Shown here: piece after piece, positions 1 to 57,562 of the stretch
How positions within the stretch are numbered: the first letter of the stretch is position 1
Layout of the letters: each line of letters opens with the position of its first letter
NCBI GenBank assembly: GCA_002104905.1
Contig: MCFE01000252.1
Coordinates: 1-64,000, forward strand
DNA length: 64,000 nt
Direction of reading: 5' to 3'
From: Basidiobolus meristosporus CBS 931.73
Taxonomy: Eukaryota > Fungi > Basidiobolomycota
Position numbers and translations under genes: made by a program
Notes under the pieces: model-generated
What the model saw: only the letters and a program-made list of their open reading frames with translations
Told to the model about the DNA's origin: nothing
Database searches by the model: none

Positions 1-1342
1 AACAAAAGGACTTGACTGTACTGAGACATTTGCACCGGTAGCCAAGTTTATTCCCTCAGATTAATATTGGCTATTGCAGCCAAATATAAGTTTTTTATTC
101 ATAAAATGGATGTAAAACTACATTTTTGAATGGAGAACTTTATGAGGACATGTATATGAACCAGCCTGATGGGCTTATTGACCAGGATTACCCCTATTTG
201 GTCTGCAAGCTTAAAAAGTCACTATATGGTCTCAAACAATCACTAAGAGCCTGGAACTGCAAGATAGATTCTTATTTGGAATCTTTGAGTTTCAAAAGGA
301 GTAATGCTGACTATAGTGTATACTACAAGCCAGATAGAGCAAGTCCAGCTCTATTAGCTCTATATGTGGATGATCTTATTATAGCCACCAATAACCTAGA
401 AACACAGAAAGAGACTAAATCCAGCCTATTTAAGGAGTTCAAGATGTCTAATCTAGGAGAGCTCAATTACTACTTAGGGATTAAGCTCTCATAGACAGAA
501 GTGCACAAACTATTACCCTAAGCCTACTCAGGTATATTCAAGATATACTAAAGAAGTACCAAATGGAAGACTGTAAACCGGCAGCTACCCCAATGGAGAC
601 AAACCTTAACTTGGTCAAAACACCACCAAATCAAGAGAGCTTGGTGCCATTTGAAAGCCCTTACTTTCCTTATCAATCTATGATTGGCAGTCTGATGTAT
701 ACTATGCTTGGAACATGTCCAGATATCTCATATTCAGTGGGAGCTGTCAGCTAGCATAATCAGAATTATGGATCTGATCATATTGCAGCAGTTAAGCAGA
801 TTTTTAGATACCAAAAAGGAACTGCTGATATCTGCTCAAGATACTCTTATAAGAATTCAGAATGGGATCTTGTGGGATACTCCAATGCTGATTGGGGACA
901 AAGCTTGGAAGACAGAAGATCCACTACAGGATACACCTTTCTTTACTGTAAAGGAGCACCTTCATGGAATTTAAGAAAGCAACCAACTGTAGCACTTTCT
1001 ACTACAGAGGCAGAGTATAAGGCAGCCTGTGAAGCTACAAAAGAAGCAATGTGGCTAAGAAAGCTTTTTACAGATTTGGGCCTATGTCGAAAAATGCTTA
1101 TTACTTTATCTCAATATAGTCAAGGAAGTGTACAATTAGGTAGAAATCCATCTTTTCATACTAGCACCAAGCACATAGATATTAGACATCATTTCATATG
1201 TGAAGCTATAGAGAATAGCTTAGTTAGCTTTGTTTTCTGTCCTACAGCTGAAATGATTGCAGATATATTTACCAAACCATTAGCTAGAGACAAGTTTGAA
1301 TATCTTATGTCAAAGTTAGGACCAGTCAGTATGAGCATTTAG
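1..1342 (+). pseudogene. Ty1/copia pol remnant (RT + RNase H), frameshifted and stop-disrupted
   Basis: Copia RT motifs 'LKKSLYGLKQS..AWN' and 'LYVDDLII'; RNase H motifs 'GYSNADWG', 'RKQPTVALSTTEAEY', 'KHIDIRHHF', 'ADIFTKPL'. Homologous to 54500-55995. Confidence 0.95.
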
Positions 1343-1902: not shown

Positions 1903-3345
1903 ATACCATCCTTGTTCACATACTGTGCCTTAACTCTCCTCGGTCCCAACTCTACAGGATGATCAAGATTTTGCAATAAAAAAGCATCCTTGCCTAGACC
2001 CATTGTTGGTGTTCACATTTAAGATATCTTTATATCTATTAGCAATGAATATAACTTGTCATTTGTAAACATTGTTTTTCCTTTTAACAATATTACTGGC
2101 TCATAAGTGATTTTTGTTTTGTGATACAACTTAGTCTGATTCCTAAATATTAGTATACCATATTAAACTTCTGTTTCCAGAGATACTTACCATCCTTGGG
2201 TACATGAATGTTATATCCTTTGTTTTTTGTAACATCCTCTAAAATAATATCTATACCAAACATTTCCTCATAATACCTATAATAGTACTTACCATCCAAA
2301 TGCTTTTTGGAATTATTAAACATCCCCACTACCATATTGAAAGGAATGTTACATGTTTCCGGTTTTGCTACCTCTAACCCTTCTGTATCTAAACTCATTC
2401 TTATAACATCTATCTGTTTGTTGAAATTCTTAAACAAAGTTGGATTTAAAGCATACAACATAACTTCCAAAAAAGACAATGCACCGTGTTTGACTCCAAC
2501 TCTAAAATAAGTATTCTTGATACGCAAGTTTCCAATTAATACACCTGGCAAAGGTCCCATTTTTTCTTCCTCCAAAGGTCTTAACAACCCAGTTGTTTTT
2601 GGTTTGTTCTCCCCTTTTGCTTTTTTTCATTGTTTTGCCCAAAATAATATTTATAAGTTTTGCTACCAGGAAAATTCAGATGATCTGTTGCATAACAAGT
2701 TACCAAGTGCAAAAATATATCTCTATTAGATAACCTGTTTTTCTTCAAATCAACAAAAAATTTCTCAGGTGAAGTATAATATCTAGAATAAGTTGTAGGA
2801 GGATAAGGATAGCATATAACTTGCCCACCCATGATTATTAGCTTTCTAGCTTTGCCTTCAGATACCATTATAAGTAATATTGGACACTCACAAGAATAAT
2901 TATTTATAAATAGTTCTGGCAACTCTTGTTGAAGAACTGTTACATTATTAACTCTTGTTGAAGTTTTGGGAGAGAAAACTTTAACATCATTGGGAACATC
3001 ATCAAACTTATTTGCAGTTGGTATTCTGCAATCATTGTAGAAAGACTTGGTTTTGTAATACTTTTGTTTGTGTACAGCTAAGGTATAAGATAAAAAAACA
3101 GAAACTATAAAAATATTGGAAATGGATTGGGATCCTCAACATTGATTAAATGAGAATCTTTAACATATCAAACAATCCCTTGGATATACTCTTTGCTTTT
3201 AATTGGATCTTATTTACTGGACCTAATAGCAATAGGCATACCACAAACATATTACATGGTGCTGTTTGTTTCTGGAATAGCAGTATGATAACTTAGTTTT
3301 GCATTTGATATAGTAATATCTATAGATATATTTTTGTCCCAGGGT
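1903..3345 (-). pseudogene. Endogenous NCLDV-like fragment: putative early transcription factor large subunit (vaccinia A7L / VETF-L-like), frameshifted
   Basis: Stitched minus-strand translation: ELPELFINNYS.ECP..., LKKNRLSNRDIF.HLVTCYATDH, MGPLPGVL...YFRVGVKHGALSFLEVML, LIFRNQ...TYEPVI, KAQYVNKDGI. This motif order matches my recollection of iridovirus/marseillevirus/pithovirus VETF-L. No introns; AT-rich; about 3-4 frameshifts and several stops. Confidence 0.65.
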
Positions 3346-6300
3346 CTGTATTCACAAGTTCCTCTGGGTCCAGATCTTCAGCTGGCACTGCAAGGTCTAG
3401 CACCTCATCTGCCAGTCTTTACAATAAATCCTTGCAATAGTCAAGTACATTTTCTTAAGGACTGCTCTTGAAGAAGTGCTGCAACCACTTGGTATGCCTA
3501 TTAATGTTCCAAAATTCTGTTGTAGGCATCATGATAGTCTTTTGAGTTCTTAACATAGTTGCTTTGTCTGACAGTGGGATCTCCACCCTGTCTACAATGG
3601 AGGACATGGAGGCAGTGGTAGGCAAATTACTTGTCTCTGCAAGCTCATCTACCTCACTGGAGTGTAGCTCAACAGGTTGCACTTCCAACTCTTTTGAAAG
3701 CACCTGTTTCTGTGTTGGTGATTTTTCTTAGCTATTATGGGATTCAATCTGTTCCAGGCTTACAGCATTATTTAACAAGAACTGCAGCTTTTTTCTCATG
3801 CATCCTGGTCTCTGGCTTGGGTGAACTTTTTTCCCTATACCTTTTCCTTTATCACTTCCAGGTCTTTGACTGCTACTTAATCTGAGTATTTCTTGTATTG
3901 AACTGTATTTTCTCCTTGACATATGCTGCTCTGATGCATCTACTTTGGCCTGCTTATCACTTGCTGGCACTCTGCAGGCAACCTGATGCTTCTTTTCCGC
4001 TTGTTTTGAGCTTTCAGCCCATGCTGTGACAGGCTCTGGAGGCAGCCACTTGTTTTTATCACTGCCAGGTCATTTAATGCTACTTTCACCAAGTGCTTCT
4101 TGAGTAGGACTATGATTGTTCCTTTGTACATGTCATGCTGGTGCATCTGTGTCTACCTGCTTTTCCCTAATTGGCACTCTTCCGGCAACCTCATGTCTCT
4201 TTGATGCTTGTTTGGAGTTTTTGGCCCTGCTTGTAATGGGTTTGTCAGGAAGCTGCAGCTTTTTAGCTATTGCACACTTGTTCTTTGGTCCTTAATAGTT
4301 TTTGCCATTCTTGAGATACTTTCTTAGCATACCAATGCTGGCCCAGAATCTGGTTGCTTGTTGAATCCAGGATAACACTCATGGAGCAGTCAAGCACATT
4401 CCCTATGAGAAATAATTTGGTCCCATGGGTAGATCCAATCCAGATCAGCTGTCAGGATCCTGCTTGGAGACCACCATAATACTGGCAGCTTCAATTTAGT
4501 GACCCTCTTGACAATCCTCCTGCTTACTAATGTCTACAAACATGCACACCTGCCACAATTGACATACTTACATCACCTCAACTTTACAGCTTTTTAGTGT
4601 GATACTTACAAAGTTGCTATATACCTTGTACTGCTGGTAACATATACACCTTGCAAACATATGCTTAGTTGTTGCCACTTCTGCCATGAATACTTCCTGA
4701 GTATCTGCAAATAACTTCTTAGTACTTAGCCAATGTATTCCTTCTCCCTGCTGGATTCCACACCCCTTATAGGTGTTCTTGGGCTCTTGTTTGTGTGAAT
4801 TTCATACTGAATGATATAGAAGTTGGCTTGTGACCATGAGTAATCCAGCATACCTTGGTAGAGTTTTCCTGATCCAAATTAGTTGCTGGTTGCACCCAAC
4901 TCAACTTTACATTACTTCACCAATTATCCACACATTGGGGCTGCTTGGCTTCTTAATGCCATAGGCATAAGTGTCTCCATGTGCACATCTGTTGGTGTTT
5001 GGGTATTGATAATGTGTGTGAGTTATGGAGTAAATCCCACAGATTACGCACATTTGACAGCAATACCATCCATTGGGCCCAGAAAAACTTGCTGTTTTGC
5101 TGATGGCTGGGGTATCTCCAATGCAGATAATAATATGTGCTTTATATGACAGCCATTTACTGTTATCCTGCTGGAAAGCATACCAAATTCATGTAGCAAT
5201 GGATACAGGTAGCTATCCAGGTTGGACTGTGATTTGGGCCCAGATAGCTGTGAGACTACCATCAGATTATTGCACTGATACTGTAAGATGGGCAGCAGAT
5301 TCAAATGATGAGAATCAGTGGCCAGCAGGATTTGCTCCAATAGTACTTGTTAAATGTGAATCCATCAAGTGCTGAGACAAAGGCATAGTCATACATACCT
5401 TCAGAGTAGCACTTGCTTCTTAGCTGGTTGTAATGTTTGCCATCTAAGAAATTGGATATGTTTGCGCTTGATTGATGCTGGGTGTGGTACTTTATAGCTT
5501 TGAAATATTTGTTGGACTGCATCAGCCTCTTTAGACAGGGTATTAGTGGAATATATCCAGAGTGTTAACAATGTTTTCCCTCAATGGTGGTGGGTTCCTG
5601 ACAATTTGGACATGTTGAAATGGTAGCATTTTTGGACATGAATGCCACACAATTATTAACACATGCTGGAATCAGGGCAGTCTCTGGGGCATACGCTACC
5701 AGCTACATGATAGTTGTCCACTTGTACAATGTACATTGTATGTTGCATCCTGGAATGATTTTGGCAAGAAGTAGTAATAAATCCTCAAAGCCCTTACTAC
5801 TGATATCAGTGGAAATGGGCCACTTCTCTAGCCACAACATTACATCATTTACCAGTAGATGAATTACTGGGCTAACTTGACTCCATAAAGTATTGTTGGC
5901 ATTTGTTTCAACGGGTGTTATCTCATTGCATATTGGGACTTGACTATACTCATGCATGGCACAGTTGTTAGGGGAGATAGGCTCACAATCCGCCAGTGAA
6001 CCTTCTTTGTTAGAGCTATCACTCTGCATGCCATATTCAGAAGGCTGAGGTGAGCTTAAAGGTGTAACAAATTCACCTGACTCAGTTTGTGTAAGGTGAC
6101 AAAGGCAGCCAGGTGCCAATATAGAAGTATCAACTGGCCAGCAAGATAATGTTGGTACAGTAATGACTGATGAATGGTCAAATATGACTTATGTGGCAAA
6201 ACACTGGCCATGATTCTTGTAACACCTCCTTTGCTGTCTGCGTGCTTCATGGCTGAGAGGCTTGCCACAATAGCCACATGGTCTTTTTCCTCTTCTCTTA

Positions 6301-8410
6301 CAGCATTGAATCAAAGTAGTCTTATCCATGGGGCAAGCAGTTTGACCTTCAACAACATAACACTATTATATCACCTTTTGGTCAATACTCATGTGAATTT
6401 AAGACAGTCTTGTATTTGAGGCAATTCACCTACATGAATATATGATTTGATGGTGACCTGCCATAGTAAGCATTATATATAGAGTTGTGGCACCACATAC
6501 ACATGCAAATGTAACACTATTTCCCCTTTGGCTTGACTCACTTCCATCTATATGCTGCCAAAAAATAAAGCAAAGTTGTCTGGTTCCGAACCAAACCCCA
6601 CCACTGATGGCAGCAAAAGAACAATTGAACAACAGCTTGCCTTGATATTCAGTGCAACAAGCGGGACTACATCCAAAAAGACCATTTTGACAGAGTGCCC
6701 ACCAAAGGCAATAATGCAGACTCCTCTGGCTCTCAGTCAAGTAGGCAATTGAGAACATATTTAGAGCCACAAGCTCACTGGTATGCTTAAGCAGATGAGA
6801 ATGTAGCAAGTGTAGTATCCTCAGTTGAAGACCAGCAAGTAGCCATCATAACATCACCACTACACATATTAGTAAGTATGTTGTCAGCTCATACCAAAGC
6901 ATTAATGAGCAATTAGGTGTAGTGGCTTATAGCATAGATGCAATGGCTCAGAGAAGTCAGGAAATAGTCCAGAAACAGTGGATAATAGATTTAGAGCAAT
7001 CAATATCCCAGGTAGAGAAAGCAATATCTTTGCTGCAAAGAAAGAACTCAAGTATCCCTATGTCACAGCCAAGAATTGAGCCACTTCCCAATGAAACAGC
7101 AGAGGAATACCCCAAAGTCTTTGAAGTGCAACAACAATGCCCAAAGATAAAGCCCACAGAAAAACCTATCACAGCATAGGAGGGAGACAATGTGGTGTTT
7201 ATGCCAAAGCCTAAAAATCAAAAGACATTGAAGATCTTTAAAGTCATTGAGTGCTATAATGAAGAGTGGGCTGATATTCAAGAGGCTGTTAGAAGTCTAG
7301 CATGCCATCACCTTAAGGCTAGCATACCATGGGACCATCAGGAACTCAAGGCCAAGCAAAATGCACTTGACTTGTTCCATGAGCATTATCCTGGATTGGA
7401 ACAGGCAACAGATTTTGGGCCAGCATTGGTATACTAAGAAAGTATCTTAAGTACAGCAGAAGCTATCAAAGGCAGAAGTACAAGGGTGCCATATCTAAAA
7501 ACCAGCAGCTTCCTCAAGAGACTGTTGCAAGCAGGGCCAAAAGCTTGAGACAAGCATCAAAGAGATGTCAAGTAGCTGGAAGAGTGCCAATCAGGGGCAA
7601 GCAGGCAGAAATGGATGCAACAGCACAACAGTTATCAAGGAAAAAGCTTAGTACCACTCAAGAAGCACTCAAAGTAGCAGTGAGGACCTGGCAGTGATAA
7701 AAACCAGTGGCTTTTACATGAGCCTGTCACAACCATAGCTGAGAGCTCAAAACAAGCAGAAAAGAAATGTTGTGTTGCCAGATGACTGCCAGCAAGGGAC
7801 AAGAAGGCCAAGACAGATGTGTTAGAGCAGAATTTATCAAGCACAAATTGTAGTTCATTACAAGAAGCACTCAGAAAAGGTAGCAGTGAAAGACCTGGCA
7901 GTGATAAAGGAAAAGGTACAAGGCAAAGTGTCTACCCAAGCCTGAGACAGGGAAGCATGCAAAAAAACTGCAGTTCTTGCCAATTAATGCTGCAGGCCTG
8001 GAACAGACTGAATCCCATCAAAACTAAGAAGATTTACCAACAAGAAAACAGATGCTTTCACAAGAGTTGGAGGTGCAGCCAGTTGAGCTACAATCCAGCA
8101 AGGTAGATGGGTTTACAGAAAAAGACAATTTGTCTACCATAGCCTCCACATTCTCCATTGTTGACAGAGTGGAGTGCCCACTGACAGACAAGGCTACAAC
8201 ATCAAGTACTCAAGAGACTATTATGATGCCTTCAGTGGAGTTTTGAAACATTAACAGGCACACCTACAGGTTGCAGCATCACTTCACAAGCAGTGCTCAA
8301 GAAAATGCACTTGAATATTGCAAGGATTTACTGTAAAGACTGGCAGATGAGATGCTAGACCTTGCAGTGCTTGCTGAAGACCAGGATGTGTGGGAACCAG
8401 TGAATGCACA
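3345..8410. mobile_element. CACTA/EnSpm-type (Tnp2, PF02992-like) DNA transposon copy A: transposase on minus (~4500-6500) flanked by two related accessory ORFs
   Basis: 'SN.LDGKHYNQLRSK...ALDGF...SKSCWPLILI' and 'SGPKSQSNLDSYLYPLLHE' are Tnp2 motifs. 3345-4330 is an inverted homolog of ~7430-8410. Confidence 0.8.
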
Positions 8411-39849: not shown

Positions 39850-42800
39850 ACATGCATTGGGGCAATGCCTGTGGTTGAGAGCAAAATACAAAAACCTGAC
39901 AGCCTGTGCAATTGGACCTCTATGAAAAATAATTTGATCCTGCAGGTGGATCAGATCTGGATAAGCCATCAGGATCCCATTTAGAGACCATCATAACACC
40001 AGCAGCTTGGAATCAGTGATCCTCTTAACAATCTTATGACAGGATTACAATGGTGTTTTGCTAATTTTACTTCCAAATGAAGTTATAAAACTTGACAAGA
40101 CTTGATTGGAGATGTGGCAATAATTGCATGGTATTGTTGTGGTTTTGTTGTGCTCTACAACTATTTTAAATGGATGCAACTAGCCAGGACATCAAGTGGC
40201 CTTATAAGGCAAAATATTTGACAGTATTTCTACAGCCTCACAGCAAGATTCTGATGGCATTATAATGCCAGTATGGTAGCCAACAGCTAGTTCTGTATAA
40301 TGCTACAATACCAATTTACCAAGTAGTATTTCCTTTTTCTACCTACCCTGGAGCAATTCATATAGTGCTCTGTAGAATCACCCCTCTTTATTTGCTTATC
40401 CACTACTACCTGAGGTAATTCTTGTTTGTGTGAATTCTTTATTGAATAGTGTAGAAATTGGCTTGTGACCAAGAGAAGTCAGGCATAACTTGGTAAAGCT
40501 CTCCTAATAAATATTTGTTGCTTGTTGCACTCAACCCAACTTTGCATTACTGGACTGAATATCTATGCATTGGGGCTGCTTAGCTTCCTAATGCCATAGG
40601 CATAGGTGTCTCCATGTGCACATTTGTCCTCAGTATTTTCCAACTCTTCCAGGCTGTCCTCCATATGCCAACTCATCACATCCATGATGGACTTTAGGGA
40701 AAAATTCTTGAAGAGATTGGGATATGGTAGTACCTGCAACTTGACTGATCTTCCTATCTCCCCACACTTCCAATCCATAGGAAACTCCTAGAAGGTGAAG
40801 TAAGGCCCAATATTCTCCACACACTGTACAAGATAGAATAGTGAATAGATACAGTAGTGGCAGAGATTTACATGCTCAGCTTTATGTTTGTAGTATAGCC
40901 ACTCAAATCCCAACACAAACTCCTTGCACAACAGCTGAAGATGTGTTAAGTTGGCATTGGAGATCCACCTCTGGACAAATACTCCTATAATGTCCACATA
41001 TAGCTCCCAATACTTCCAGTGTACTCTTGGTAGGAATGGCTTCAGAAAGCCACTTGAATAAACACACATCCTGCTGATCCAGTCTTTGCAGTTGCATTGC
41101 CACATATGCATATGAATATTGATTGGAGCCCATGAGAAGTACTTAGCAAAGTGGATACTCTACAATATCTTGCCAATTATTTCAAATTTCTCTGGTATCT
41201 CAAAGGGCTCATTTTGCTTCAGATGCTCCATGTACAACTTGGTGATCACTAGAGGGATATTGTTGAAAAGCAAACACATCACTCCCAGTGCAAAGCTCTT
41301 GCTCCAACAGATACCCTCCATCTTAAGTATCTCTGATTTCCAATTTCCTCTATATTCTGGCCAATGGCTTATAGCTTGCCAGCTTTGCTGCAACTGCATG
41401 CTGACTTCTGTACATTCTCTCTGTGTGAAGATGATGTTCTTAGTGTATTGGTGATCCACTTCTGGAAAGTATTCCTTCAATGTCCACATATGACACAAGT
41501 TCTTCCTATGTACTCTTGGTAGAAATGGCTTCAGAAAGCCTCTTGAATAGACACATATCTAGCTAATCCAGTTCTTGTGCTTGTATTGTTAGATATGCAT
41601 ATGAATGTTGATTGGAGCCTATGAGAAATACTTAGGGTAGCAGATACTTTGTATTACCTTGCCAATTCATTCAAATATCTCCAGTATCTCTAAGGGTGCA
41701 TTCAGCTTGGAATGCATGATGTACAACTTGGTCATCAGCATAGGGAAATTGTTGAAGTGGAGATGCATTGTTCCAGTGGAAAGCTTTTGCTCTTACAGAT
41801 ACCCTATTTCTTAAGTATCTCTGGTTTCTGATTCACTCCATAGTCCAGCTAATAGCTTATAGCTTGCCAACTTTTTTGCAATTGCATGCTGACTTTTATG
41901 GTCACTTTGCAGGAAGATGATGCTCTGAGTGTTAGTGTTAGGGTATTGATAATGTGTGTGAGTTATGGAGTAAATCCCCTGGATCTCACACATTCAACAG
42001 CAATACTGTTGATTGTGCCCCAAAAAACCTGCTATCTTGCTGATGGCTGTGATATCTCCAATGTAGATAGTAATATGAGCTTTTACATGTTAGCCATTTA
42101 CTGTAATCCTGCTCAAAAGCATACAAAATTCATCCAGAAATGGATACAGGTGGCTATCCAGGTTAGATGGTGATTTAGGCCCAGAAACCAGTGAGATTAC
42201 TGTCAGATTATTGCTCTGATTCTGTAAGATGGGTGGCACATTCCAATTGATGAGAATCAGTGGCTAGCAGGATTTGCTGGTAGAGTACTTCTTTGATGAG
42301 AATCCATCAAGTGCTAAGGCAAAGGCATGGTCATGCATACCTTCAAAGTTGCCCTTGCTGCTTAGCTGCTTGTACTGTTTGCCATCAAATATATTGAATA
42401 TGTATGTGCTTGATTGATACTGAGTGTGGTACCATATAGCTTTGCAATATTTGTTGGACTGCATTAGCTTCCTCAGACAGGGTATGCTTGGGAATATATC
42501 TGGAGTGTGAATGATGTTTTCCCTCAATGGTGGTGGATTCCTACAATTTAGACATGTTGCAATGGTAGCATTTTTGGATGTGAATGCCATGCGGTTGTTG
42601 ACACATGCTGGAATCAGGACAGTCTCTGAATCTTATGTTGCCTGCTGCATGATAGTCGTTTGCTTGTACCATATACATGGTAAGTTACATCCTGGAATGA
42701 TCTTGGCAAGAAGTAGTAAAAGTCCTTAAAGCCCCCATTACTGATATCAGTGGAAATGCACCACTTCTCTAGCCACATCATTACATCATTCACCAGCAGA

Positions 42801-44740
42801 TAGGTTACTGGGCTCACTTGGCTCCACAAAGTATCCTTGGGATTTGTTTCAACAGGTGCTGTCTCATTGCATATTGGGATTTGACTGGGCTTATACATGG
42901 TACTGCTGATAGGAGAGATAAGCTCACAATCCATTATTAAACCTTCTTTGTTTGTGCTATCACTCTGCATGCCATATTCAGAAGTCTGAGGTGAGCCTAA
43001 AGGTGTCACAAACTTACCTGACTCAGTTTGCATATAGTGGCAAAGATGGCCAGGTGCTGATATAGAAGTATCAACTGGCTTGCAAGATAATATTGGAACA
43101 GTAGTGACTGATATATGGTGAACTATGACTTGTGTGGCAAAACACTGGCCATGATCCTTGTAATACTTCCTATGCTGTCTGCATGCTTCACAACTGAGAG
43201 GCTTGCTACAATAGCCACATGATCTTTTTTCTCTTCTCTTATGGTGTTGAACCAAAGTAGACTTGTTGATGGGGCAAACAGATTGACATTCAACAGTGCA
43301 ATGCTATCATATCACTTTTTAGTCAATACTCATGTGAATTCATGACAGTCTTGTACTTATGATGTTGCACCTACATGAATATACAATTCAATGATGACCT
43401 GCCATAGTAAGCAATAACACAGTTGTGGCACCACATACACACATATGTGTAAACTATTTCCCCTTTGGTTTGACTCACTCCAGTATATATGCCACCAAAA
43501 AATAAAGTAAAGTCTTCTGGTTCCCAACTAAACCCTACTGCTGATGGCAGCAGAAGTATGGTTGGACAACAGCTTGCTTTGACATTCAGTGCAACCAGCA
43601 GGGCTACATCCAAAAAGGCCATGTTAACTGTGTGCTCACTGAAGGTAATAATGTGGACTCCTCAGGCTCTCAGTCAAGTAGGCAATTGATAACATCAGCT
43701 GAGCCCCTAGCTGACCATTATGCTCATGTAGATGAGAATGTAGCAAAGGCAGTACCCACAGTTGAAGACCAGCCAGTAGCCATAATAGCATCAGCACAGC
43801 CCATATTTGCAAGTATGCTGTCAGCTCACACCAAAGCATTAATGAAGCAATTAGGTGCAGTGGCTTTTAGGATAGATGCAATGGTCCAGAAAAATTAGGA
43901 AATAGTCCAGAAACAGGTTGAACAAATAATATGTGTAGAGCAATCAATATCCCAGGTAGAGAAAGCAGTATCTTTGCTGCAAAGAAAGGACTTAAGTAGC
44001 TCAATGTCACAGCCAAGAACTGCAACATTTCCCAATGTAACAGCAGAAGAACACTGTACAGTCTCTGAAGCACAACAATGGTGCCTAAAGATAAAGCCCA
44101 CAGAAATATCTATCACAGTATGGGAGGGAGACAATGTGGTGCTTATACCGAAGCCTAATAATCAAAAGACATTGAAGATCTGTGAAGCCATTGAGTGCAA
44201 TAGTGATTAGTGGACTATTATTCAAGAGGCTGTCAGAAGTCTGGCACACCATCACCTTAAGGCCAGCATACCATTGCACCATCAGGAACTCAAGGCCAAG
44301 CAGAATGCACTTGACGTGTTCCATGAGCATTATCCTGAACTCAGATGGGCAAATAGATTTTGGGCTAGCATTGGAATGCTAAGAAAGTATTTTAAGAACA
44401 GCAGAAACTATCAAAGGCAGAAGAACAAGGATGCCATGGCTGAAAAACAGTGGCTTCCTCAAGAGCCCATTGCAACTACAGTTGAGGGCTCAAAATACAT
44501 AGAAAAGCAATGTCAGGTTGCCAGGAGAGTGCCAGCAAGTGACATGCAGGCCAAAACAGATGTGTCAGTGCTGAATGTAGCAAGGAGAAAGTGCAGTTCA
44601 TCACAAGAAGCACTCAGACAAGGTAGCAGTGAAAGACCTGGCAGTGATAAAGGAAAAGAAAAGGGAAAAATGTCTACCCAAGCCAGAGACAGGGAGGCAT
44701 GCAATAAAACTGCAGTTCTTGCCAATTAACACTGCAAGCA
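39850..44740. mobile_element. CACTA copy E, the most complete: transposase on minus (~40400-43400) and divergent accessory ORF on plus (~43490-44740)
   Basis: 'FNIFDGKQYKQL...LALDGF', 'HWKYWELYVDIIGVFVQRWIS', 'LVQCVENIGPYFTF', 'MDWKCGEIGRSVK'. Confidence 0.82.
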
Positions 44741-46250: not shown

Positions 46251-48856
46251 AGACTGCTAGCAACTGCATCTAGATTGTGCCAGCCTGCCTTGCTAAATTC
46301 CCTACAGTCACTTGCAATGCCAGTGCACCAGCGCATGTCAGTTTGACTTACATAAACACCTTTCACAAGAGCACCCTGCATTGAGTCAACAACTGTGCTT
46401 CAAAGCAAGACTACCATAACTTGTCATACTGCTCATTAGACATGAGTCCATTGGAGCAGGCCAAGTTGCGTCAACATGTAGCATTCCATTAAGCTCAGCC
46501 AAGGGCCTTACCAACACATCAAGTTGCACCTGCACCTGGCATTACACCTGATCATCAGCAAGAGACTTCTGTTAACTGACTGGCAATGTCCTACTTGAAG
46601 TGACTCCACCACTAGGACCTTTGGCAAGTGGAAGAACAAATCAGGATGTGGCATTTTAGGCTGGTTCTGTAACATCATCTTGAACAATTCAGCATTGCCA
46701 AGCTCCAGCACTGCACTCATCAACTAGGAGGCAAAATACTGACTACAAGTACACAAGTGGCCAAGATGATAGTCAATCAGGAATTAGTTCAGGTGTGCAA
46801 AGTGATTCATTACCAAATGCTTCAGTATTAATCCCTGTGAGAAAAAAACATAGGAGAAAACAATTTCATTGAATTGCTATCATTTGTTGTGATCTGAACA
46901 ACTCATTTGTTTTTGCAATCCAAATCAAGCCATCCTAAATCAGTTATCATTTAGTTTTTGATATGAGTAATATCAAGATTGTCTCCCACTTGGACTAAAC
47001 CCCTATAAATAAACACCCTGCATAAATATACACTATCTGTAGCACCAGTGCAGCTATTTCATCTGTCTTGCACTTACTCAATTGGTTGTGTGCTGGCTAT
47101 GATACCTAGGCAATCACTAAATTCAGGCATTTACTTGCATAATGGGTAAAGTGGGATATCTGATAATAAATCAGGTAGCTTGTGTATTAGTCAATGAGTC
47201 AATTGGGGTCTTGTAGCTTCAGGATACTTTAGGACCAACTAATCACTGACATACTGTCTAATTAGAGTGATGGTAGCCAAAATGGTAAGTATCAGTGTAG
47301 TTTACAGTGTGGTACACATTTATTTCCATTTACATTAAAGAAACATATCCAAATACCAGATTTTACTTACCATAGTAGTGGCATCCAATTACACATGTGA
47401 GGCAAACATTACATGTTGGTGCAATCATTGGTGCCAAACATTTGTATCAGATTCTGCCATAGTATGCAGAACTGCCCCACATGCAATGTGTTGTGGTAGT
47501 GCAGAGTCAATGTGTCACGTCTGTTCATCCTTGCTTGTAGTCATATTTAGTCAAGATATAAATAGTATGTTTTTGGTGGTTGCTGCATTTCTGCTGATTT
47601 TCTCTCTTTTTGAAGCACTGGCTAGATGTGTCCTCACCATTAGCAGTATTGGCAAGAAAGGTTGTTATTACACTTAACAGGTTGTGAGTATCCTTTTGGT
47701 GGTGATCAATGCTTATTAAAGAATTTTTTTCCCTCTCATTGGTGCTTGATTTTCTCATTACAAATCCAGGGGCCTTCCATATGTGTATTATAGTGTTGAA
47801 TCTTCAGCTCTGGACACTATGACTTATAAAAGACAATGAGACCTGTCTATTAAGCTATTCAGGAGGACAACTAATGTGTATTCAGCACTATTTTGTATGC
47901 CCATAATCAACAAAGTATTTCAGTTGATTAGATCTTATATGTTCTCATGTGAGCAACTTTACTAGTAGAGAAGCTTTGTCTAAGGTACATATTCCTAGCT
48001 GCTGAGCCCAATTGGTAGGTGTCCTCTAGTACCTGTCAGGCATTGCGTTGTGGTAGGGTAAACATACCTCCCACAGACAAGTTTATTCATATAGTCATTA
48101 TGATATACTTATCCATATTTTATCTTATCAGTATTATCCCATTCTTCTTCTGCCCATATTATCAGTATTATCCCCATATGATGTTTACCCTGATTAGTTA
48201 TTAGCATTAGTTATCCCAGATGTTATTCAGCTTTGTGATCAGTAGATGTATCTATATAAGGCAAGTACCCGCGTCAGTACCCGTGACACATGACCTAGGT
48301 CTGTGTTACCATCCCTACCATTTCAATACCATATATGGTATTTCTATGTTGCACAGGTTTCAGATTACTGATTCCTGATTGGTTGAGAGTGCTGTGCCTT
48401 TTAGAACCTTCCAGGACATTCTTGGCATATTTTTAGCTCATAGTGATGTCATCAAGAATTCCACTGATACCTAGAATCTTCTAGAACCTTGTCATTAGTA
48501 ATCACTTGGCAATCAGGAAAAGTATTTAAGGGAAAGCAATCCCTCATCAATAAATCATCCCTTCTATCAGTAACACTTCTACCTTATTGATTAGCAGCTG
48601 ATCACTGCACCTGCCTTCAACAGTACATCTCAGACCTGCCATCAAGGAGCTTTTCAGGGTAGTGCACAAGACACACAGAGGCCTTTGGAGACACTTGGAG
48701 CACCTAGGAAGCTAGAGAAGCAGGAGCTTTTACCATAGTGACATATTGACAAAGACACCAGCAGTTTAGACACAGAGGTTATTGCACCCATCAGACACCT
48801 CACACACCTTGAGTTGTGTAGCTTCTCCCTGGAGTACCTCTACACCACCACATATT

Positions 48857-48873
48857 TGGCACCCAACGTGGGG
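48857..48873 (+). promoter_or_regulatory. Primer-binding site, tRNA-Lys(CUU)-type
   Basis: TGGCACCCAACGTGGGG differs by one CpG transition from the retroviral tRNA-Lys1,2 PBS TGGCGCCCAACGTGGGG. Confidence 0.8.
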
Positions 48874-48926
48874 GGTTTGACTGAACTGCCCCTAGAAGAC
48901 TTAAGAAAGAACAAATTATCAAGACC

Positions 48927-50783
48927 ATGGATCTACCTTTACCAGGAATGCAAGGAACCCCTTTCTTTGATGGAACTAAAGTTAAAGCTTTCATCAAGAG
49001 GTGGGAGCTTTTCTGCAGAGCCCACAAAATACCTGAGGCCATTATGGCTGAAGAGATGCCCCCCTACAGCACTGATGAGATCATGCTCTCATTATATGAA
49101 AGAAATGATCTGCTGACAAATTGGACCCTCTTGAAGAGCTACTTGATTGATGAATATGGAGAGAGACAAGTTGACTACACACTTCAAGACTTGGAGAACT
49201 TTGCTTATAGCAAGTTTAAGCTGCTACCATTGAAAGAATACTTGAGTGGCCTTGAGCAAATTGGAGAGTCACTGAAAGCCCAAGGAGTTATAACTGATCT
49301 CACTTTATCTGCCTATCTTCTCAGAGCACTACCAGAAGACCTGGTGAGAAGGATTGAAAACAATCCTACTGTGAAAGCTATGAGTTCACTGCCTGCATTT
49401 CAGTTAGCTAAGCAGATTCTACTTGCCCCTGAAGAAACCTCACCAATCAGAAAGCTTCTTTCAAGCTCAGCACAAAACCAAGATAGCCAAGACTTACTTC
49501 ATCCCAGTAATCAAAGCACTCAAATTCAGGAGCTGACACAGCAAATAGAGAAACTCTCTTTGCTACTCACCAGCAAAGCATATGGGCAGAAGCCAGTAGA
49601 GAAAGAAGTCAAATATACATGCATGTGGTGTGACTCTGCCAACCATTCCAAGAGAAATTGCCAAGAGCTTCAGTCATTACTATCCACAGGTGATGTCCTA
49701 TATAGTCCTCAGGGATACATAGTCAGTAAGCATGGTGACAAATTATCCACAGCATTTGGACAAGGAGGAATGAGAGTTCACTACAAGCAAGTCACCTCTC
49801 ATACAAGAAAGGTTCAACTCCATGAAGAAGAAGATCCTGACTACTTTGATCCAGCTGAAGTTCTGAACTTTGACTATGAGGACCCCAGAGAGGCCCAAGA
49901 TCATATAGCTTCAATTTATGCTTCAAAGAGACACCATCCTGAAAAAATGGCTAATCCAGGCCCAGCAACAAAAGTACCAAGATGTGAGCCAGAAGTTGTG
50001 ATTGAGAAGAAAGCATCACCCCCATTAATTTTACAAGAGTCTGCCAAGGCCAACAACTACCACATGCAGCCTAGAGTCAAGCAAAATGGTACCCCAGAGG
50101 CTCTGACAAGTCATATACTAGGAAGCAACATATCAATCAAGGTTGGAGAGCTACTCAGTGTATCACCATCTGTAAGAAAGACTCTGGATGAGCATATCAG
50201 AATAAGAAAGCATCCAATTGAATCAACTCAAGGCAACCAGGTCAGGACAGTTCAAGGAAGCCAAAATATCAGTAAGCTGCATCAAAGCCAGAAACACTAC
50301 TACTCAGTGGCAACTGCAACAACTACAGGAACTGTGCATAATCAAGAAATCCTATGTCATATAGACAGTGGATCTGAGATATGTGTGATGCCTTTGGAGG
50401 CTTGGAAACAACTACCATGCAAAGACTTATTGCCCATAGACACCAATATCAATTGGAGCATGAAGGATGCCAACTCAGGGCAATCAAAGCTTTTAGGAAT
50501 TATTCACAGCTTCCCTTTCATCATTGAAGGAATACCCCATGAGATCCCAGTATTCATATGTGCAAAGGCTAACTTTGAATTACTTCTTGGAAGACCATGG
50601 GAGGTAAAAGCAAGAGCAACTGCAGTGAACTACCCTGATAGTTCAGCATGGTATACTATATACTCAGAGAGCCCAGGACTAACAGCAACCTTCTGTGGTG
50701 TGGACTCAAACAATATCCGATCAATGACATCATGTAGATTTCTATCTCAAGAAAGGACAGGTGGCTTCATTGAGGAAGACTGA
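48927..50783 (+). CDS. Intact 618-aa retrotransposon Gag-aspartic protease polyprotein
   Basis: N-terminal 'PFFDGTKVKAFIKRWELFC', CCHC knuckle 'CMWCDSANHSKRNC', protease 'ILCHIDSGSEICVM' with 'LLLGRPW'. Confidence 0.93.
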   Translation: MDLPLPGMQGTPFFDGTKVKAFIKRWELFCRAHKIPEAIMAEEMPPYSTDEIMLSLYERNDLLTNWTLLKSYLIDEYGERQVDYTLQDLENFAYSKFKLLPLKEYLSGLEQIGESLKAQGVITDLTLSAYLLRALPEDLVRRIENNPTVKAMSSLPAFQLAKQILLAPEETSPIRKLLSSSAQNQDSQDLLHPSNQSTQIQELTQQIEKLSLLLTSKAYGQKPVEKEVKYTCMWCDSANHSKRNCQELQSLLSTGDVLYSPQGYIVSKHGDKLSTAFGQGGMRVHYKQVTSHTRKVQLHEEEDPDYFDPAEVLNFDYEDPREAQDHIASIYASKRHHPEKMANPGPATKVPRCEPEVVIEKKASPPLILQESAKANNYHMQPRVKQNGTPEALTSHILGSNISIKVGELLSVSPSVRKTLDEHIRIRKHPIESTQGNQVRTVQGSQNISKLHQSQKHYYSVATATTTGTVHNQEILCHIDSGSEICVMPLEAWKQLPCKDLLPIDTNINWSMKDANSGQSKLLGIIHSFPFIIEGIPHEIPVFICAKANFELLLGRPWEVKARATAVNYPDSSAWYTIYSESPGLTATFCGVDSNNIRSMTSCRFLSQERTGGFIEED

Positions 50784-52020
50784 GAGAGCACTTTGTTCTC
50801 CAAACTTACAGTGGTTAGCTAAAAAGTTTCAGGGAACTTTTTAGCTCAAGTGGGGGGTGGATGTGGTAGGGTAAACATACCTCCCACAGACAAGTTTATT
50901 CATATAGTCATTATGATATACTTATCCATATTTTATCTTATCAGTATTATCCCATTCTTCTTCTGCCCATATTATCAGTATTATCCCCATATGATGTTTA
51001 CCCTGATTAGTTATTAGCATTAGTTATCCCAGATGTTATTCAGCTTTGTGATCAGTAGATGTATCTATATAAGGCAAGTACCCGCGTCAGTACCCGTGAC
51101 ACATGACCTAGGTCTGTGTTACCATCCCTACCATTTCAATACCATATATGGTATTTCTATGTTGCACAGGTTTCAGATTACTGATTCCTGATTGGTTGAG
51201 AGTGCTGTGCCTTTTAGAACCTTCCAGGACATTCTTGGCATATTTTTAGCTCATAGTGATGTCATCAAGAATTCCACTGATACCTAGAATCTTCTAGAAC
51301 CTTGTCATTAGTAATCACTTGGCAATCAGGAAAAGTATTTAAGGGAAAGCAATCCCTCATCAATAAATCATCCCTTCTATCAGTAACACTTCTACCTTAT
51401 TGATTAGCAGCTGATCACTGCACCTGCCTTCAACAGTACATCTCAGACCTGCCATCAAGGAGCTTTTCAGGGTAGTGCACAAGACACACAGAGGCCTTTG
51501 GAGACACTTGGAGCACCTAGGAAGCTAGAGAAGCAGGAGCTTTTACCATAGTGACATATTGACAAAGACACCAGCAGTTTAGACACAGAGGTTATTGCAC
51601 CCATCAGACACCTCACACACCTTGAGTTGTGTAGCTTCTCCCTGGAGTACCTCTACACCACCACAGCGTTCCAATTTTTTTCTTGAGCAATGCATTGGCA
51701 ACTTGTCTTTTGCTTTAAGGTAAATGTAGCTGAACTCTCTGTGTTCTTTCTTCTGATACTTTGAGGCTTCTTCTCCTACACCTTTAGGATTGCATTCATT
51801 TCCCATAATAATATGCCAAAGGCCACTTTCCTGTAATATCATCTCAGCTTCATTTTCCAGCCTTGGTAGTTAGATTCATCCAACTACTCAGCAGAGGTAA
51901 AAATTCCAACTATAACAGTAGCAGACATTCCAGAGAGTGGCAGATTGGGGCTCATTACTGGCTTTAGGAGCTTTGGAGAAATTGAATGTGATTGGGAGAG
52001 CAAATAGATTATGTGGTCTT

Positions 52021-55000
52021 TGTTGTAAAAATTTGTAATTTCACCTAAATACTCACCTAACTTAGTTACTTGGATCATTACTGTCAAATCCTAGAGAATA
52101 CTGACCAAATGCCTTGTTGGAATCTACTTAGAATATTTTCACCAAAACATCTGGTGCCAAGAACATGAAATTTCCCTAAGTTGTCCAAACAGCCCCAAAC
52201 TTTGCACAAATGCTCTTGGGATCTTCCTACACCTGTTCTGTGTGCTTTTTATGGCAATATCATGTAAAAGTATAGATACTACTTATACATTCAATAGATT
52301 ACTAAGTGAAACCCCCATAATATACTTGTTCCCCTAATCACTTCCAATATCTCCAAGACTCTTACAACAGGTTATGAGCCCCAAGCTATCACTCTCTGCA
52401 ATGTCTACTGCAGCAATGACTGAAACTTTACCTCTGCAGAAAAGTTGGATGGATACAGCTACAATGTGTGGAAGTTGCAGATGATGATGCTGCTATAAGA
52501 AAGAGGTCTTTGTATATTGTCATGGGAGAACATTAGCCTCCTAAAAATGTGGGAGAGGGATTTTTAAAGTACCAGAAGAATGAACAAAGTGCCTTTAACT
52601 TTGTTTGCCTTGATATCAAGGACAATTTGCTAATTCATTGCTTAAGGGCAAAAACAGCAAAGAATGCCTGGAGGGCATTAGTTGACACCTACCAGTCATG
52701 TTCTGCTGCCAAGAAAATGTGTCTTAAATAAGAGTTCTATACAACAAAAATGCTGCCAGGAGAAGTCATGAATAATCTAATGAACAAAATTACCCTGCAG
52801 GTGGATGAGATGGAGTCTGTGGGTGAACCAGCTACTGATGAGGATGTAATAGTCAGCATCCTGAATAGCCTGACAGACAAGCTTCAGGGCTTTTTAGCTG
52901 CCCAAGAGTCCAAAACTGAAGATTTGACTTTAAATTATGTATATGGAAGGCTCCTGGATAAAGAATTAAGAAAATCAGGTGCCAAGAAGAAGGAAGAATA
53001 AAATGCTTAAATAGCCAGTAATAACCAACAAAGGAGATACCCAAGACCTTTTCAAGGAAATAGCAATTGTTTTGCAACTACTGCAAAAGGAAAGGGCACA
53101 CATCAGACCAGTGCTGGAAAAAGAGAGATAGTTAGCAGAAAAAGCCTGTATATGGAGATGTGGCAACAACTGAAGATAGAATACTCACATTTGCACTCAA
53201 TATGACCCTAAACAAGAATTCTCAGATGTGTCTAATTGACTCTGGCACATCTTAAAACTTTACCCACCAAGAAGAACTTTGTACCCAATATCAAGCAATC
53301 CCAATCAAGAAGGTTTTCATGGGTGACAATACCCTATGAAAAATAATTTGGTCCAGCAGGTGGATCCAATCCAGATCAGCTGTCAAGATCCCATCAGGAG
53401 ACTGCTATAATGCCAGTAGCTTGATATTAATGATCATCTACGCAATCTTATGATGGGATCATGACAGAGTTTTGCTAATTTTACAGCCAAGTAATGTTGA
53501 TAAAGTATAACAGTGTTTTTACAGTGTTTTGCCAAGAGTGGCATGACATTATTGCGGTCTTAGTGCACTTCTTGACTATTTAATTGGATCTAACTAGCCA
53601 GCACATCCAATTGCCTTCTATGGCAAATAACCTGACAGCATTTTGATGGCCTCTTTGCCAGCCTCTAATGGTATTTTCACAGCAGTATGGCAGCCTACTA
53701 CTAGCTCTGTATAATGCTATCATGCCAATTTACCAAATGTATGTTCTTTTTCAAGCCCCCCTTGCCAAATTCATATATTTCACTGTAGAATCACCCCTCT
53801 GTATTTGCTTTCCCACTACTACCTTGGGTATTCCACATATAGCTTGAATCAAAAGATACTTTGGCCTCCTGTTTACTAACCTCTACACACAGGCACATCT
53901 GCCGTAAATGACATAGTTCTATCACCTTAACTTTACAGCTCTTAAGTGTGAAGCATGCAAAGTTGCCATCTACCTTCTATTGCTGGTAACATATACATCT
54001 TGCAAAAATATGCTTGGTTGTTGCCACTTCTGCCACATATACCTCCTCAATATCTGCATAGAGCTTTTTGGTGTTTAGCCAATATATTCCTTCTCCCTCT
54101 TGGATTCTAGTCCCCCTTATAGGTGTGCTCTGGCACACATTTGTGTGAATTTGTGTTAAATGGTGTAGAAGTTGGCTTGTGACCAAGAGAAATCCAGCAT
54201 ACCTTGGTAGAGTTTTCTAATAAAAATTAGTTACTTGTTGTACCCAACCCAACTTTGCATTACTTAACAGATTACCCATGCAATGGGGCTCCTTAGCTAC
54301 TTAATGCCATAGGCATAGGTGTCTCCATGGGCACATCTGTCCTTGGTATTTTCCAACTCTTCCTGGCTGTCCTCCATGCACCACCTCATCACATCCATGA
54401 CAGACTTGAAGATGATATTCTAAGAAATAGCCCAAATTACTATATTAGTAAGGGTACAAATCTAGCCTATGCCTATTCAGTCCATATTGATGGGTCCCAG
54501 ATTGTAAAGAGGCCCTAAATAGCCCTCTGACAAAGTTTGAGATCTGCAATGACTGAGCAATATCAGGGCCTAATGGAAAATCAAACTTAGAACTTGGTCA
54601 AATTACCAACCAACCAAAAATCAATTGGATGCAGATAGGTCTTTAAGACAGAGTACAAGGCCAATGGTACAACTGAAAGATACAAACCAAAACTTGTGGC
54701 CAAAGGATACTCTCAAACAAAAGGACTTGACTATACTGAGACCTTTACACCAGTAGCCAAGTTTAATTCCATCAGATTAATATTGGCTATTGCAACCAAA
54801 TGTAAGTTTTCTATATATATCAAATGGATATCAGAAATGCATTTTTAAATGCCAAACTTGATGAGGATGTGTATATGCACCAGCCTGATGGGTTTGTTGA
54901 CCAAGATAACCTCCATTTGGTCTGCAAGCTTAAAAATTCTCTATATGAACTCAATCAATGACCAAGTGCCTGGAATTGCAAAATAGATTCCTATATGGAA

Positions 55001-56248
55001 TCTTTGAGTTTCAAAGGAGTAATGCTGAATATAGTATATACTTTGAGACAGATAGAGCAAATTCAGCTCTATTAGCTCTATATGTCAATGGTCTTATTTT
55101 AGCTGCCAATAACCTAGAAACATTGGAAGAGACTAAATCCAGCCTATCTAAAGAGTTCAAGATGTCCAATCTAAGAGAGCCCAGTTGCTACCTAGGGATA
55201 AAGTTCTCCATAGACAGAAGTACCCTGACTGCCATCCTAAGCCAATCCAGATATATTCAAGATATACTAAAGAAGTACCAAATGGAAGACTGTAAGCCAG
55301 CAGCTACCCCAATGGTGACAAACCTTAACTTGGTCAAAACTCATGCAAATCAAGAGAGCTTGGTTCCATCTGAAAGCCCTGACTTTCCTTATCAATCTAT
55401 GGTTGGCAGTCTGATATATATCAGGCCTGGAGCATGTCTAGATATCTCATATTCAGTGGGAGTTGTTAGCCAGCATAATCAATACTATGGATCTGATCAT
55501 ATTGCGGCATTTAAGCAGATTTTTAGATACCTAAAAGGAACTGCTGATATCTGCTTAAGATACACTTATAAGGTTTCAAAACAGGTACATGTGGGATACT
55601 GTGATGCTGATTGGGGATGAAATTTGGAAGACAGAAGATCAACCACAGTATGCACCTTTCTTTACAGCAAAGGAGCAATTTCATGGAATTCAAGAAAGCA
55701 ACCAACCATTACACTTTCTACCACAGAGGCAGAGTACATAGCAGCCTGTGAAGCTACAGCAGAAGCAATGAGGCTAAGAGAGCATTTCAAAGATTTAGGT
55801 TTATGTCAAAAAATGCCTATTACTTTATTTCTAGGTTATCAAGCATGTATACAATTAGGTAGAAATCCAGCTTTTCATGCTAGAGCCAAGCACATAGATA
55901 TTAGACATCATTTCATACATGAAGCTATAGAGAACAATTTAGTCAACTTAGATTACTATCCTGCAGATGAAATGATTGCAGACATATTTACCAAACCAGG
56001 ATTTATTTGGAATATTTTCACCAAAATATCCTGTACCCAAAACATAAGAATTCTCAAAGTTATCCAAAAAGCCCCAATCTTTACACACATGTTCTTGGGA
56101 CATTCCTAAACCCATTTCTTGAGCTTGTTATGCCAAGATTATGTAAATGTATAAATACTACTTTTACATTCAATAAATCATTAAGTAAAAACCACATTAT
56201 CTACTTGTTCTCCCAATCACTTCCAATATTTCTAAGACTCTTACAACA
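52021..56248 (+). mobile_element. Copia family A element: 5' LTR 52021-52369, PBS, gag, PR remnant, RT, RNase H, partial 3' LTR ~56000-56248; integrase region replaced by a CACTA fragment
   Basis: PBS GGTTATGAGCCC at 52370-52381; RT ORF 54958-55620; RNase H 'RKQPTITLSTTEAEY...KHIDIRHHF'. Confidence 0.9.
53300..54420 (-). mobile_element. CACTA copy F (transposase C-terminus + start of downstream ORF)
   Basis: Colinear with 39900-40690 and 24050-25050. Confidence 0.75.
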
Positions 56249-56802
56249 ATATTCACTTAAGGCTCTACTGACTGTGAGAGTAGTATTTATACTTTTGTAT
56301 GGTCTTGGAAAGACAAACATGTAATCCATGTTTAGAAAGATCCCAAAAATATGTGTGCAGAGTTTGGGGCTGTTTGGACAACTTTGAGAATTTCATGTTG
56401 TGAATATCTGATGTTTTGGTGAAAATATTCTGAGTAAATCCTGACATGGAATTTGCCTAGAATTCTCCAAGAATTGCAATCAATTATCTATGTGACTAAG
56501 CTAGGTGGACACTAAGTTGCAATTACCAGCTTTTACAACAAAACTATATAATCTACCTGTTCTCCCAATCACCTCCCATATCTTCAAACCATTTACAACA
56601 GCATACAGTCTATCTGGCAAAACAGGTGCAGATATAGTTGCAAAATCATCAGCTACAACATTGTTGTGATCTTGCAAGCACTTTGAGTATCTAAGACTCT
56701 TGCAATACAGGCAACCAAGTGACCATAGATAATAATGTGTATATGCATATCTTATAACTAAGAGGGAGGTGACTATTACATCTTAATCAGTACCTTCTAC
56801 TG

Positions 56803-57147
56803 ATGTAAGCTTTGTAATTACACCCAAATATTCACCTAACTTGGTCACTAAGATCACAGTCTACAAATCTTAGAGAATTCCAGCCAAATTCTTTGTCAGG
56901 ATTTACTTAAAATATTTTCACCATAGCATCAGGTACCCAGTACATGTAATGTTGATAGGTTGGCTAAGTAGCCCCAAACTTTGCATACATACTCTTGGGA
57001 CCTTTCTAGACATATCATATGTGTTTGTTTTGCTAAGATCTTATCAAAGTATAACTCAACCCTTACATTCAATAAATCATTAAGTGAAAACCACATAATC
57101 TACTTGTTCTCCCAATCACTTCCAGCATCTCCAAAGCTCTTACAACA
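56803..57147 (+). repeat. Decayed LTR-A copy at the edge of the TE block
   Basis: Homologous to 1354-1701; ends ctcttacaaca. Confidence 0.8.
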
Positions 57148-57562
57148 TGCACTCCAATTGATATCATCTCACCACCAACGTAGTGATATTACTAGCATTT
57201 CAATCTTTTTTTTTCTGCCAAAATAACTGCCATCGTTTTATAAGTAATTATGAAATCCTATACCCCATGCACATATGCATTTGTAGAACATCGATCACGG
57301 AAATATAATAGTATCCATCAGATTTTGGTTTGTTGATTTGTACACTTCCCTTTACTTGCAGATTCTCAAGCATATGGACTTACCCGTTGGAACAATTTTG
57401 ATGTGGACTTGACTGTATTTAAGCTTGATGGGCAGAGGAAAAGCTCGGTCAAGTACTAAGTTGCTTCATTAAATTATTTTCATATTCAAATTGCGTATTT
57501 TATTCAAGATTCAATCAAATTCCGGTTGGCCTTCTGACATCCATTTTGGTGCGAGTGGCAAT

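Follow-up and report, generated by a model that had tools for sequence, protein, structure and literature searches.

The lineage described closest to the gene relic reported here is that of the fundsalphaviruses. Pithovirus-related DNA polymerases were reported by Gong 2020 (PMC7017919) in Basidiobolus meristosporus, B. heterosporus and twelve other fungi, accompanied by genes for D5, helicase, methyltransferase, RPB2, RPB5, RP1n and RP1c. According to the accessible parts of that paper, the lineage is defined by its DNA polymerase and treated as a set of virus fossils, whereas the relic is known from the large subunit of the early transcription factor (VETF-L); the host species and the burial of fragments in retrotransposons are common to both. 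The accessible part of the supplement gave 0 matches for 'VETF' or 'early transcription', and closed genomes, capsid loss or a high-depth form were not found in the accessible text.

NCLDV-like regions are also present in the moss Physcomitrella patens, for which the available sections of Maumus 2014 (PMC4083422) describe a split RPB1 and no capsid or packaging genes. The split RPB1, SSB, TFIIS, the lack of capsid and packaging ATPase, and the methylated, silenced state with invasion by LTR elements are points of likeness to the lineage considered here; the plant host is a difference. In the same sections, the choice between a small dependent virus and pieces of a larger one was left undecided, and a plasmid origin was judged unlikely. 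Mycodnaviridae (Myers 2026, PMC13533422) are likewise giant-virus DNA in fungi, found integrated and at excess coverage. They differ, as far as the consulted portion of that paper goes, in a size of up to 350 kb, possession of MCP, an Algavirales/Imitervirales affinity and mostly zoosporic hosts; Basidiobolus is unmentioned there, and MCP is given for one non-zoosporic fungus only, Dimargaris. Membership of the relic in this family was rejected, since its best fold matches are to Pimascovirales and its closed relatives measure 35 and 52 kb. Fungal VLEs or killer plasmids, reported also in Zoopagomycota in the part of PMC13348850 at hand, resemble the relatives of the relic as capsid-less cytosolic DNA with NCLDV-derived RNA polymerase, helicase, capping enzyme and secreted cargo. 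By the same source, VLEs are linear, around 9-13 kb long and have a protein-primed polymerase, whereas the relatives are apparent circles of 35-52 kb with delta-like PolB, D5 and VETF-L. Assignment to the VLEs was rejected because this PolB is closest to Pol delta and both relatives end in direct repeats.

The relic is endogenous in a listed fundsalphavirus host, B. meristosporus, with Copia and CACTA flanks, and the loci of its relatives carry the split RPB1 and the core gene set of that lineage. PolB, RP1n/RP1c, RPB2, RPB5, D5, UDG, helicase and methyltransferase are shared with the fundsalphaviruses, as are HET, B-lectin and MutS neighbours, in the gene maps available from Gong 2020 (PMC7017919). 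The relic very probably belongs to the fundsalphaviruses. An initial sequence-only reading had proposed a poorly known virus lineage of early-diverging fungi; this was supported, but the available text of Gong 2020 had already named the lineage from the same species. The fossil alone extends a lineage that was already known from B. meristosporus by a single gene, VETF-L. What is new is two closed contigs of the same VETF-L clade with a 15-gene core, capsid-negative. In searches of openly accessible papers, neither closed genomes lacking a capsid nor a replicating form were found described for this lineage.

The VETF-L relic and its surroundings

The window, which is the whole stretch of 64,000 nt that was analysed, contains a VETF-L pseudogene fragment with three frameshifts and six stops at 1903-3344 on the minus strand. 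It corresponds to residues ~277-759 of P0001, an intact relative of 841 aa from a Logan contig that was used as the reference for alignments of the relic. In a frameshift-aware alignment over P0001 residues 277-763, 327 of 486 positions (67%) are identical, and P0001 aligns to the window in four frames with 57-68% identity. The last four aligned residues fall inside an LTR, so that the relic proper is confined to 1903-3344; residues 1-276 of P0001 and roughly its last 80 have no counterpart, and both ends of the gene are absent. Since 483 residues occupy 1,442 nt, there is no space for introns, as the sequence-only reading had stated. The two overlapping minus-strand ORFs which it had described were also recovered, extending from stop to stop over 2581-3135 (184 aa) and 2150-2626 (158 aa), and a frameshift near 2618 indeed joins them. 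It had placed two more shifts downstream of this one, but only one was found there, near 2160, and the last of the three lies upstream, near 3142. Three TAA and three TGA codons make up the six in-frame stops, and the TAG that had been listed among them is not present.

Contigs of run X1, from the host, match the window with zero differences at 2123-2268, 2241-2427, 2494-2625 and 2792-3401. Four of the stops are confirmed in this way, as are the right junction and the two breaks near 3142 and 2160. An origin of the frameshifts from long-read errors is ruled out by these contigs for these two of the three, and the shift near 2618 sits in a T run at the end of a matching contig, which does not bridge it. 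Among the contigs listed, from which a filter drops some records, none matches the window's own copy over 1903-2122 or spans the left junction. Run X3 gave almost no coverage. A total of 291 ORF queries from related loci produced 39 matches in the window, and all 39 fall on the relic, which is its only match of viral type; with the same queries no DNA polymerase was detected within the 64 kb. The phage collection searched returned no match. The fragment in the window is without function.

Identification of the gene as VETF-L was upheld by a profile match and by fold comparison. The DUF5757 domain (PF19061) lies at 2644-2919 on the minus strand, inside the ORF 2581-3135, and covers the full profile (1-96) with an E value of 9e-15; Foldseek matches to annotated VETF-L proteins agree with it. 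For the AlphaFold model of P0001 (pLDDT 81, 50-row alignment), the top 31 named Foldseek matches in BFVD are VETF-L or unnamed homologues from Pithovirus, Marseillevirus, irido-, Orpheo- and Soli/Solumvirus and one asfa-like virus, the best being VETF-L of Pithovirus sibericum (E 6e-34). The 82-kDa subunits of poxviruses are weaker BFVD matches (E 4e-9 and 9e-8), and the vaccinia A7 chain is not among the PDB matches listed for this model. The likeness to VETF-L of Pimascovirales (Pithovirus, Orpheovirus, Marseillevirus, iridoviruses) and to vaccinia A7 consists of the predicted fold order, the DUF5757 motifs and a TBP-like domain. Identity between P0001 and the Pimascovirales proteins is 12-16% in Foldseek alignments, and relatives of the relic measure about 530-880 aa, in contrast to 975-1,500 aa in the full-length Pimascovirales matches. 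A PDB sequence search with the family profile yielded no match (best E 1.2), and the ESM Atlas no usable match for P0001 or a 208-aa orphan.

Two further domains were delimited on the P0001 model. Residues ~124-373 superpose on TBP (1ais) with a VIA-align Z of 8.7 and an rmsd of 4.2 over 172 aligned residues, and residues ~543-715 on OTUD2 with a Z of 11.1 and an rmsd of 3.2 over 135. The second half of the TBP-like domain is preserved in the relic at 3055-3344 (minus strand; mapped via the P0001 alignment) and contains the shift near 3142 and four stops, and the equivalent of the OTU-like domain lies at 2034-2548, also on the minus strand. In vaccinia VETF-L, the TBP-like domain acts on early promoters. 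VETF-L of the P0001 type bears an OTU-protease-like fold at residues 543-715. The alignment columns that we take to be those of its catalytic Cys and His were placed by motif and not by superposition. At the presumed Cys column, 63 of 93 short forms and 88 of 93 long forms have Ser, and His is nearly missing from the presumed His column. Judged from these residues, the OTU-like domain is likely to be catalytically dead across the family.

The relic is cut on its left by an LTR, in accordance with the sequence-only reading. This Copia 3' LTR, with TG..CA ends and a purine tract before it, occupies 1354-1902 on the plus strand, behind a Copia pol remnant at 1-1342 (plus strand; RVT_2, PF07727, E 1.5e-33), and interrupts the gene. 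Other copies of the gene in public runs extend beyond 1902 without the LTR, so the Copia insertion is likely later than the arrival of the viral DNA. On the right, a decayed DNA transposon of CACTA/En-Spm type was recognized at 3346-7701 (minus strand) via its similarity to a Transposase_21 copy: 4990-7701 is 82% identical to 41930-44651, and the latter matches Transposase_21 with an E value of 2e-10. Other CACTA copies continue beyond 3375, which makes the 3345/3346 junction internal to the element and not its terminus, and the right end of the relic is therefore likely a deletion or rearrangement break. A 610-nt contig of run X1 spans this junction by 56 bases with 0 differences. The Copia LTR is internally palindromic, being largely its own inverted repeat (arms 1348-1552 and 1704-1908, 90% complementary), and related copies are found at about 52020-52370, 55900-56550 and 56800-57150.

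The C-to-T decay that the relic had been said to share with the surrounding transposons was verified and is specific to CpG. Host genes have an observed/expected CpG ratio of 0.75-0.90, against 0.11 for the relic and 0.01-0.06 for five stretches of transposon. Measured against P0001, a C stands before 15 of the 27 G>A-type changes at first codon positions, compared with 14 of 116 background codons (p 5e-6), and a G comes after 9 of the 14 C>T-type changes at second positions. Only one of 83 retained E/D/V/A/G codons follows a C, and none of the 12 retained Arg codons is of the CGN type. This pattern fits deamination of CpG sites that were presumably methylated. RIP of the ascomycete (CpA) type is not supported, because CpA/TpG is enriched while CpG is depleted. 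The CpG boundary in the window is sharp, with ratios of 0.00-0.12 in 2-kb bins over 1-56000 versus 0.82-0.96 beyond 58 kb. At 47700-51400, a 300-nt reference stretch found 100% identical at 48049 and 50862 flanks a 632-aa ORF (48885-50783), which suggests a young LTR element, nonetheless almost CpG-free (0.01).

Outside the relic, a GH18 chitinase gene at 57563-59107 (minus strand) anchors the window in its host, since over 53% of the query its product matches a B. meristosporus protein with 100% identity; the early-diverging fungal host proposed earlier is thereby established. At least two further copies of the VETF-L gene, about 88-93% alike, were found in the same sample (run X1). Gene models from another B. 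meristosporus locus and from B. ranarum group with the relic, and a search for short fungal fragments retained 2 of 1,338 candidates, both of them these Basidiobolus gene models.

Closed relatives and deep contigs

Phylogenetic trees of VETF-L were constructed by FastTree from 199 of 203 rows, with four short rows dropped and proteins below 200 aa excluded, and by an IQ-TREE quick search from 52 hand-picked rows. A clade of short forms (rows up to about 880 aa) is separate from the long forms with support of 1.0 (FastTree) and 99 (IQ-TREE). The relic, the B. meristosporus model, the B. ranarum model and P0001 form a Basidiobolus clade (SH-aLRT 100), which is nested in a 30-row group (support 87) that includes both closed contigs. 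In the IQ-TREE tree, the Basidiobolus group and two circle-bearing groups form an open three-way fork (87); FastTree places Basidiobolus as sister to the group of the 35-kb circle with support of 0.84 only. The trees contain no named reference virus, so that the term pithovirus-like rests on the fold matches and on the DNA polymerase tree of Gong 2020.

An alignment query located 23 loci each in viral and metagenome contigs, and P0001 alone none. The loci of the clade are gene-dense and encode RPB2, split RPB1, RPB5, D5, UDG, capping enzyme, helicase and PolB, the split RPB1 consisting of an N-part (610-780 aa) and a separate C-part (317-416 aa). One to three HET-domain genes stand beside core genes in loci L029, L031 and L033. 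Such neighbours, which the accessible gene maps of Gong 2020 also place in Mortierella verticillata, point to fungal hosts.

Two of the three IMG/VR contigs of the clade were read end to end; both are environmental, and their VETF-L is about 30% identical to that of Basidiobolus. The smaller contig has 35,106 nt and an exact terminal direct repeat of 116 nt, and the larger has 51,666 nt and a terminal direct repeat of 151 nt (99.3%) that passes through an ORF. From these ends, both contigs are apparently circular, although the closure of the 35-kb contig sits within an array of ~126-nt repeats and could be a repeat-caused contig end. None of ten complete metagenome contigs of the clade, all shorter than 13 kb, carries terminal repeats. 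At the closure of the 35-kb contig (L049:16730-18112), units of ~126 nt are repeated in both orientations over 1.4 kb of non-coding DNA; this array is a candidate origin or terminal structure.

Fifteen of the 20 ORFs of at least 90 aa in the 35-kb contig are common to the 51.7-kb contig. The named members of this core are PolB, D5, UDG, FEN1/XPG, RPB1-N, RPB1-C, RPB2, RPB5, VETF-L, an SNF2-type helicase and a capping enzyme. The remaining four have no Pfam name and measure 166-288 aa, none being longer; one of these nameless ORFs folds like the SSB CP312R of ASFV (E 7e-6), one has a weak match to the D5 primase domain of poxviruses (E 0.013), and one is SWIB-like by eye. Capsid, A32 and VLTF3 gave no Pfam or NCBIfam match in profile searches of ORFs of at least 90 aa in both contigs, and there is no capsid-sized ORF common to the two, in both of which a capsid gene, if any, would be expected. 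Pithovirus capsid proteins are divergent (Rigou 2022, in the part available), and profile searches may miss such capsids. Among the unshared ORFs of at least 380 aa, MutS, a second helicase, lectins and a low-complexity protein were recognized, and three others measure 493, 705 and 837 aa. In the PDB, the nearest match to the PolB of the 52-kb relative is Pol delta (E 3e-77).

Runs X4 and X5 come from one sample of a second study, which is labelled as the same species. In X5, a related gene is represented by four contigs of 556, 536, 99 and 395 nt, with depths of 5,403, 5,972, 6,051 and 5,834, respectively. They are colinear with the relic and share about 83% DNA identity with it in the longer aligned parts, and their loose ends, by eye, continue like P0001 across two of the breaks and beyond the LTR site. 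In X4, depth reaches 4,212 in the bin 2591-2697, and listed contigs with the host LTR stand at 11-25. Diverged copies are present at low depth, one of 699 nt at 5-7 in both runs and a second in X5 at 7.8. In a comparison of 28 rows drawn from 40 of 201, CpG accounts for 8 of the 14 listed C/G-versus-T/A differences of the deep contigs (background 0.19, p 0.002). The depth excess is of the order of hundreds-fold, with one figure per contig and contig depth being distinct from copy number.

Origin of the relic

The relic is probably an insert, since decayed at CpG sites, that derives from a compact cytoplasmic DNA replicon without a capsid ('fundsalphavirus') of pithovirus-like giant-virus descent. 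The common core of the closed relatives of 35 and 52 kb suggests that these are complete as they stand and that the donors would have been plasmid-like, and we favour a capsid-less, plasmid-like donor of the relic. Because no capsid gene was detected in the two contigs, the large DNA virus of the sequence-only reading is probably wrong in the literal sense; support for capsid absence is limited to these two relatives, about 30% identical in VETF-L to Basidiobolus. That an extant extrachromosomal form exists in Basidiobolus and has lost the capsid as well is a conjecture we hold tentatively. In the widest form of this proposal, which is attractive but falls somewhat short of an even chance, fundsalphaviruses would be widespread circular, capsid-less cytoplasmic replicons of 35-50+ kb with a 15-gene chassis and secreted lectin, lysozyme, toxin-like and HET cargo, one of them at hundreds of copies per host genome in the Basidiobolus culture, and the donors of both the fungal and the moss fossils.

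By analogy with poxviruses, an intact VETF-L would recognize the early promoters of such an element through its TBP-like domain, in concert with the SNF2-type helicase of the element, acting as the VETF small subunit, and with the RNA polymerase that the element encodes. For replication, the element would rely on a PolB, D5, primase, SSB, UDG and FEN1 of its own, and its capping enzyme would cap its transcripts. It would live on in hyphae as particle-free DNA with variable, secreted-looking cargo such as lectins, lysozyme and HET domains. Pieces of it would occasionally enter the nucleus and be methylated like transposons; deamination at CpG would then erode them, and they would be cut by subsequent deletions and transposon insertions.

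The main competitor, which we consider unlikely but by no means negligible, is a particle-forming pithovirus-like fungal virus as the source, the circles being partial, one segment, of divergent capsid or helper-reliant, and the deep contigs an active infection as with Mycodnaviridae in Allomyces. The fold matches are indeed to true virion-forming viruses; the available part of Myers 2026 (PMC13533422) read a 50-fold coverage excess as active giant-virus infection, and the excess of the deep contigs is larger; the consulted sections of Maumus 2014 (PMC4083422) raised reliance on a helper, or a single piece of a larger genome being inserted repeatedly, and some fungal MCP/A32 matches appear in those of Gong 2020 (PMC7017919). 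Yet two unrelated contigs close on one 15-gene core with no shared ORF of capsid size, the fundsalphavirus rows in the accessible gene maps of Gong bear no capsid label, and the part of Myers at hand reports no MCP in non-zoosporic fungi bar Dimargaris.

A more modest account, to which we give a small chance, takes the relic as an ordinary fundsalphavirus fossil and derives the deep contigs from a chromosomal array that was amplified, or from contamination by another organism or library, with nothing replicating in Basidiobolus. It draws on short repeat-derived contigs in the same runs that also reach depths in the thousands, and on the deep signal being restricted to one sample. Such an array or contaminant sits poorly with the four deep contigs (three of them of 395-556 nt), which are even in depth across distant, colinear parts of the gene, keep CpG at the listed differences and carry a gene of Basidiobolus type next to decayed low-depth copies in the same run. 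That the stretch arose by contamination or chimeric assembly, or represents a gene of cellular or transposon origin, is very improbable. The left junction is bridged by none of the contigs listed, and the fold has cellular relatives in TBP and OTU; but the right junction is spanned without differences, the decay of the relic matches that of the flanking transposons, copies occur in two Basidiobolus species, and intact homologues stand among viral core genes.

If the capsid-less replicon is real, it represents a second independent route from a giant virus to a capsid-less fungal element, beside the yeast killer plasmids, and explains why capsid-based surveys miss terrestrial fungi. The closed relatives also bear on the question, posed in the accessible text of Maumus 2014 (PMC4083422), why the moss relics are without capsid and packaging genes. 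The culture with the very deep copy makes the question testable from public reads and at the bench.

The two circles differ in cargo. The 35-kb circle encodes a 1,257-aa protein with bulb-type lectin domains (L047:8444-12214), in which a signal peptide, KR sites and a Ser/Thr-rich stretch like that of pore-formers were noted by eye, and a 705-aa orphan with a signal-peptide-like start (L002:7478-9592). The cargo of the 52-kb circle (L051:5942-8878, L001:1687-7466, L052:1639-4389) comprises a lysozyme with a peptidoglycan-binding domain, a beta-propeller lectin, a MutS-HNH fusion, a DNA ligase, a GNAT protein, an 837-aa orphan and a 493-aa protein which, by eye, we presume to resemble the Cyt/volvatoxin pore-formers. 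Many further relatives were found on single ENA contigs of 39-92 kb (P0006-P0023), which are possibly further complete units.
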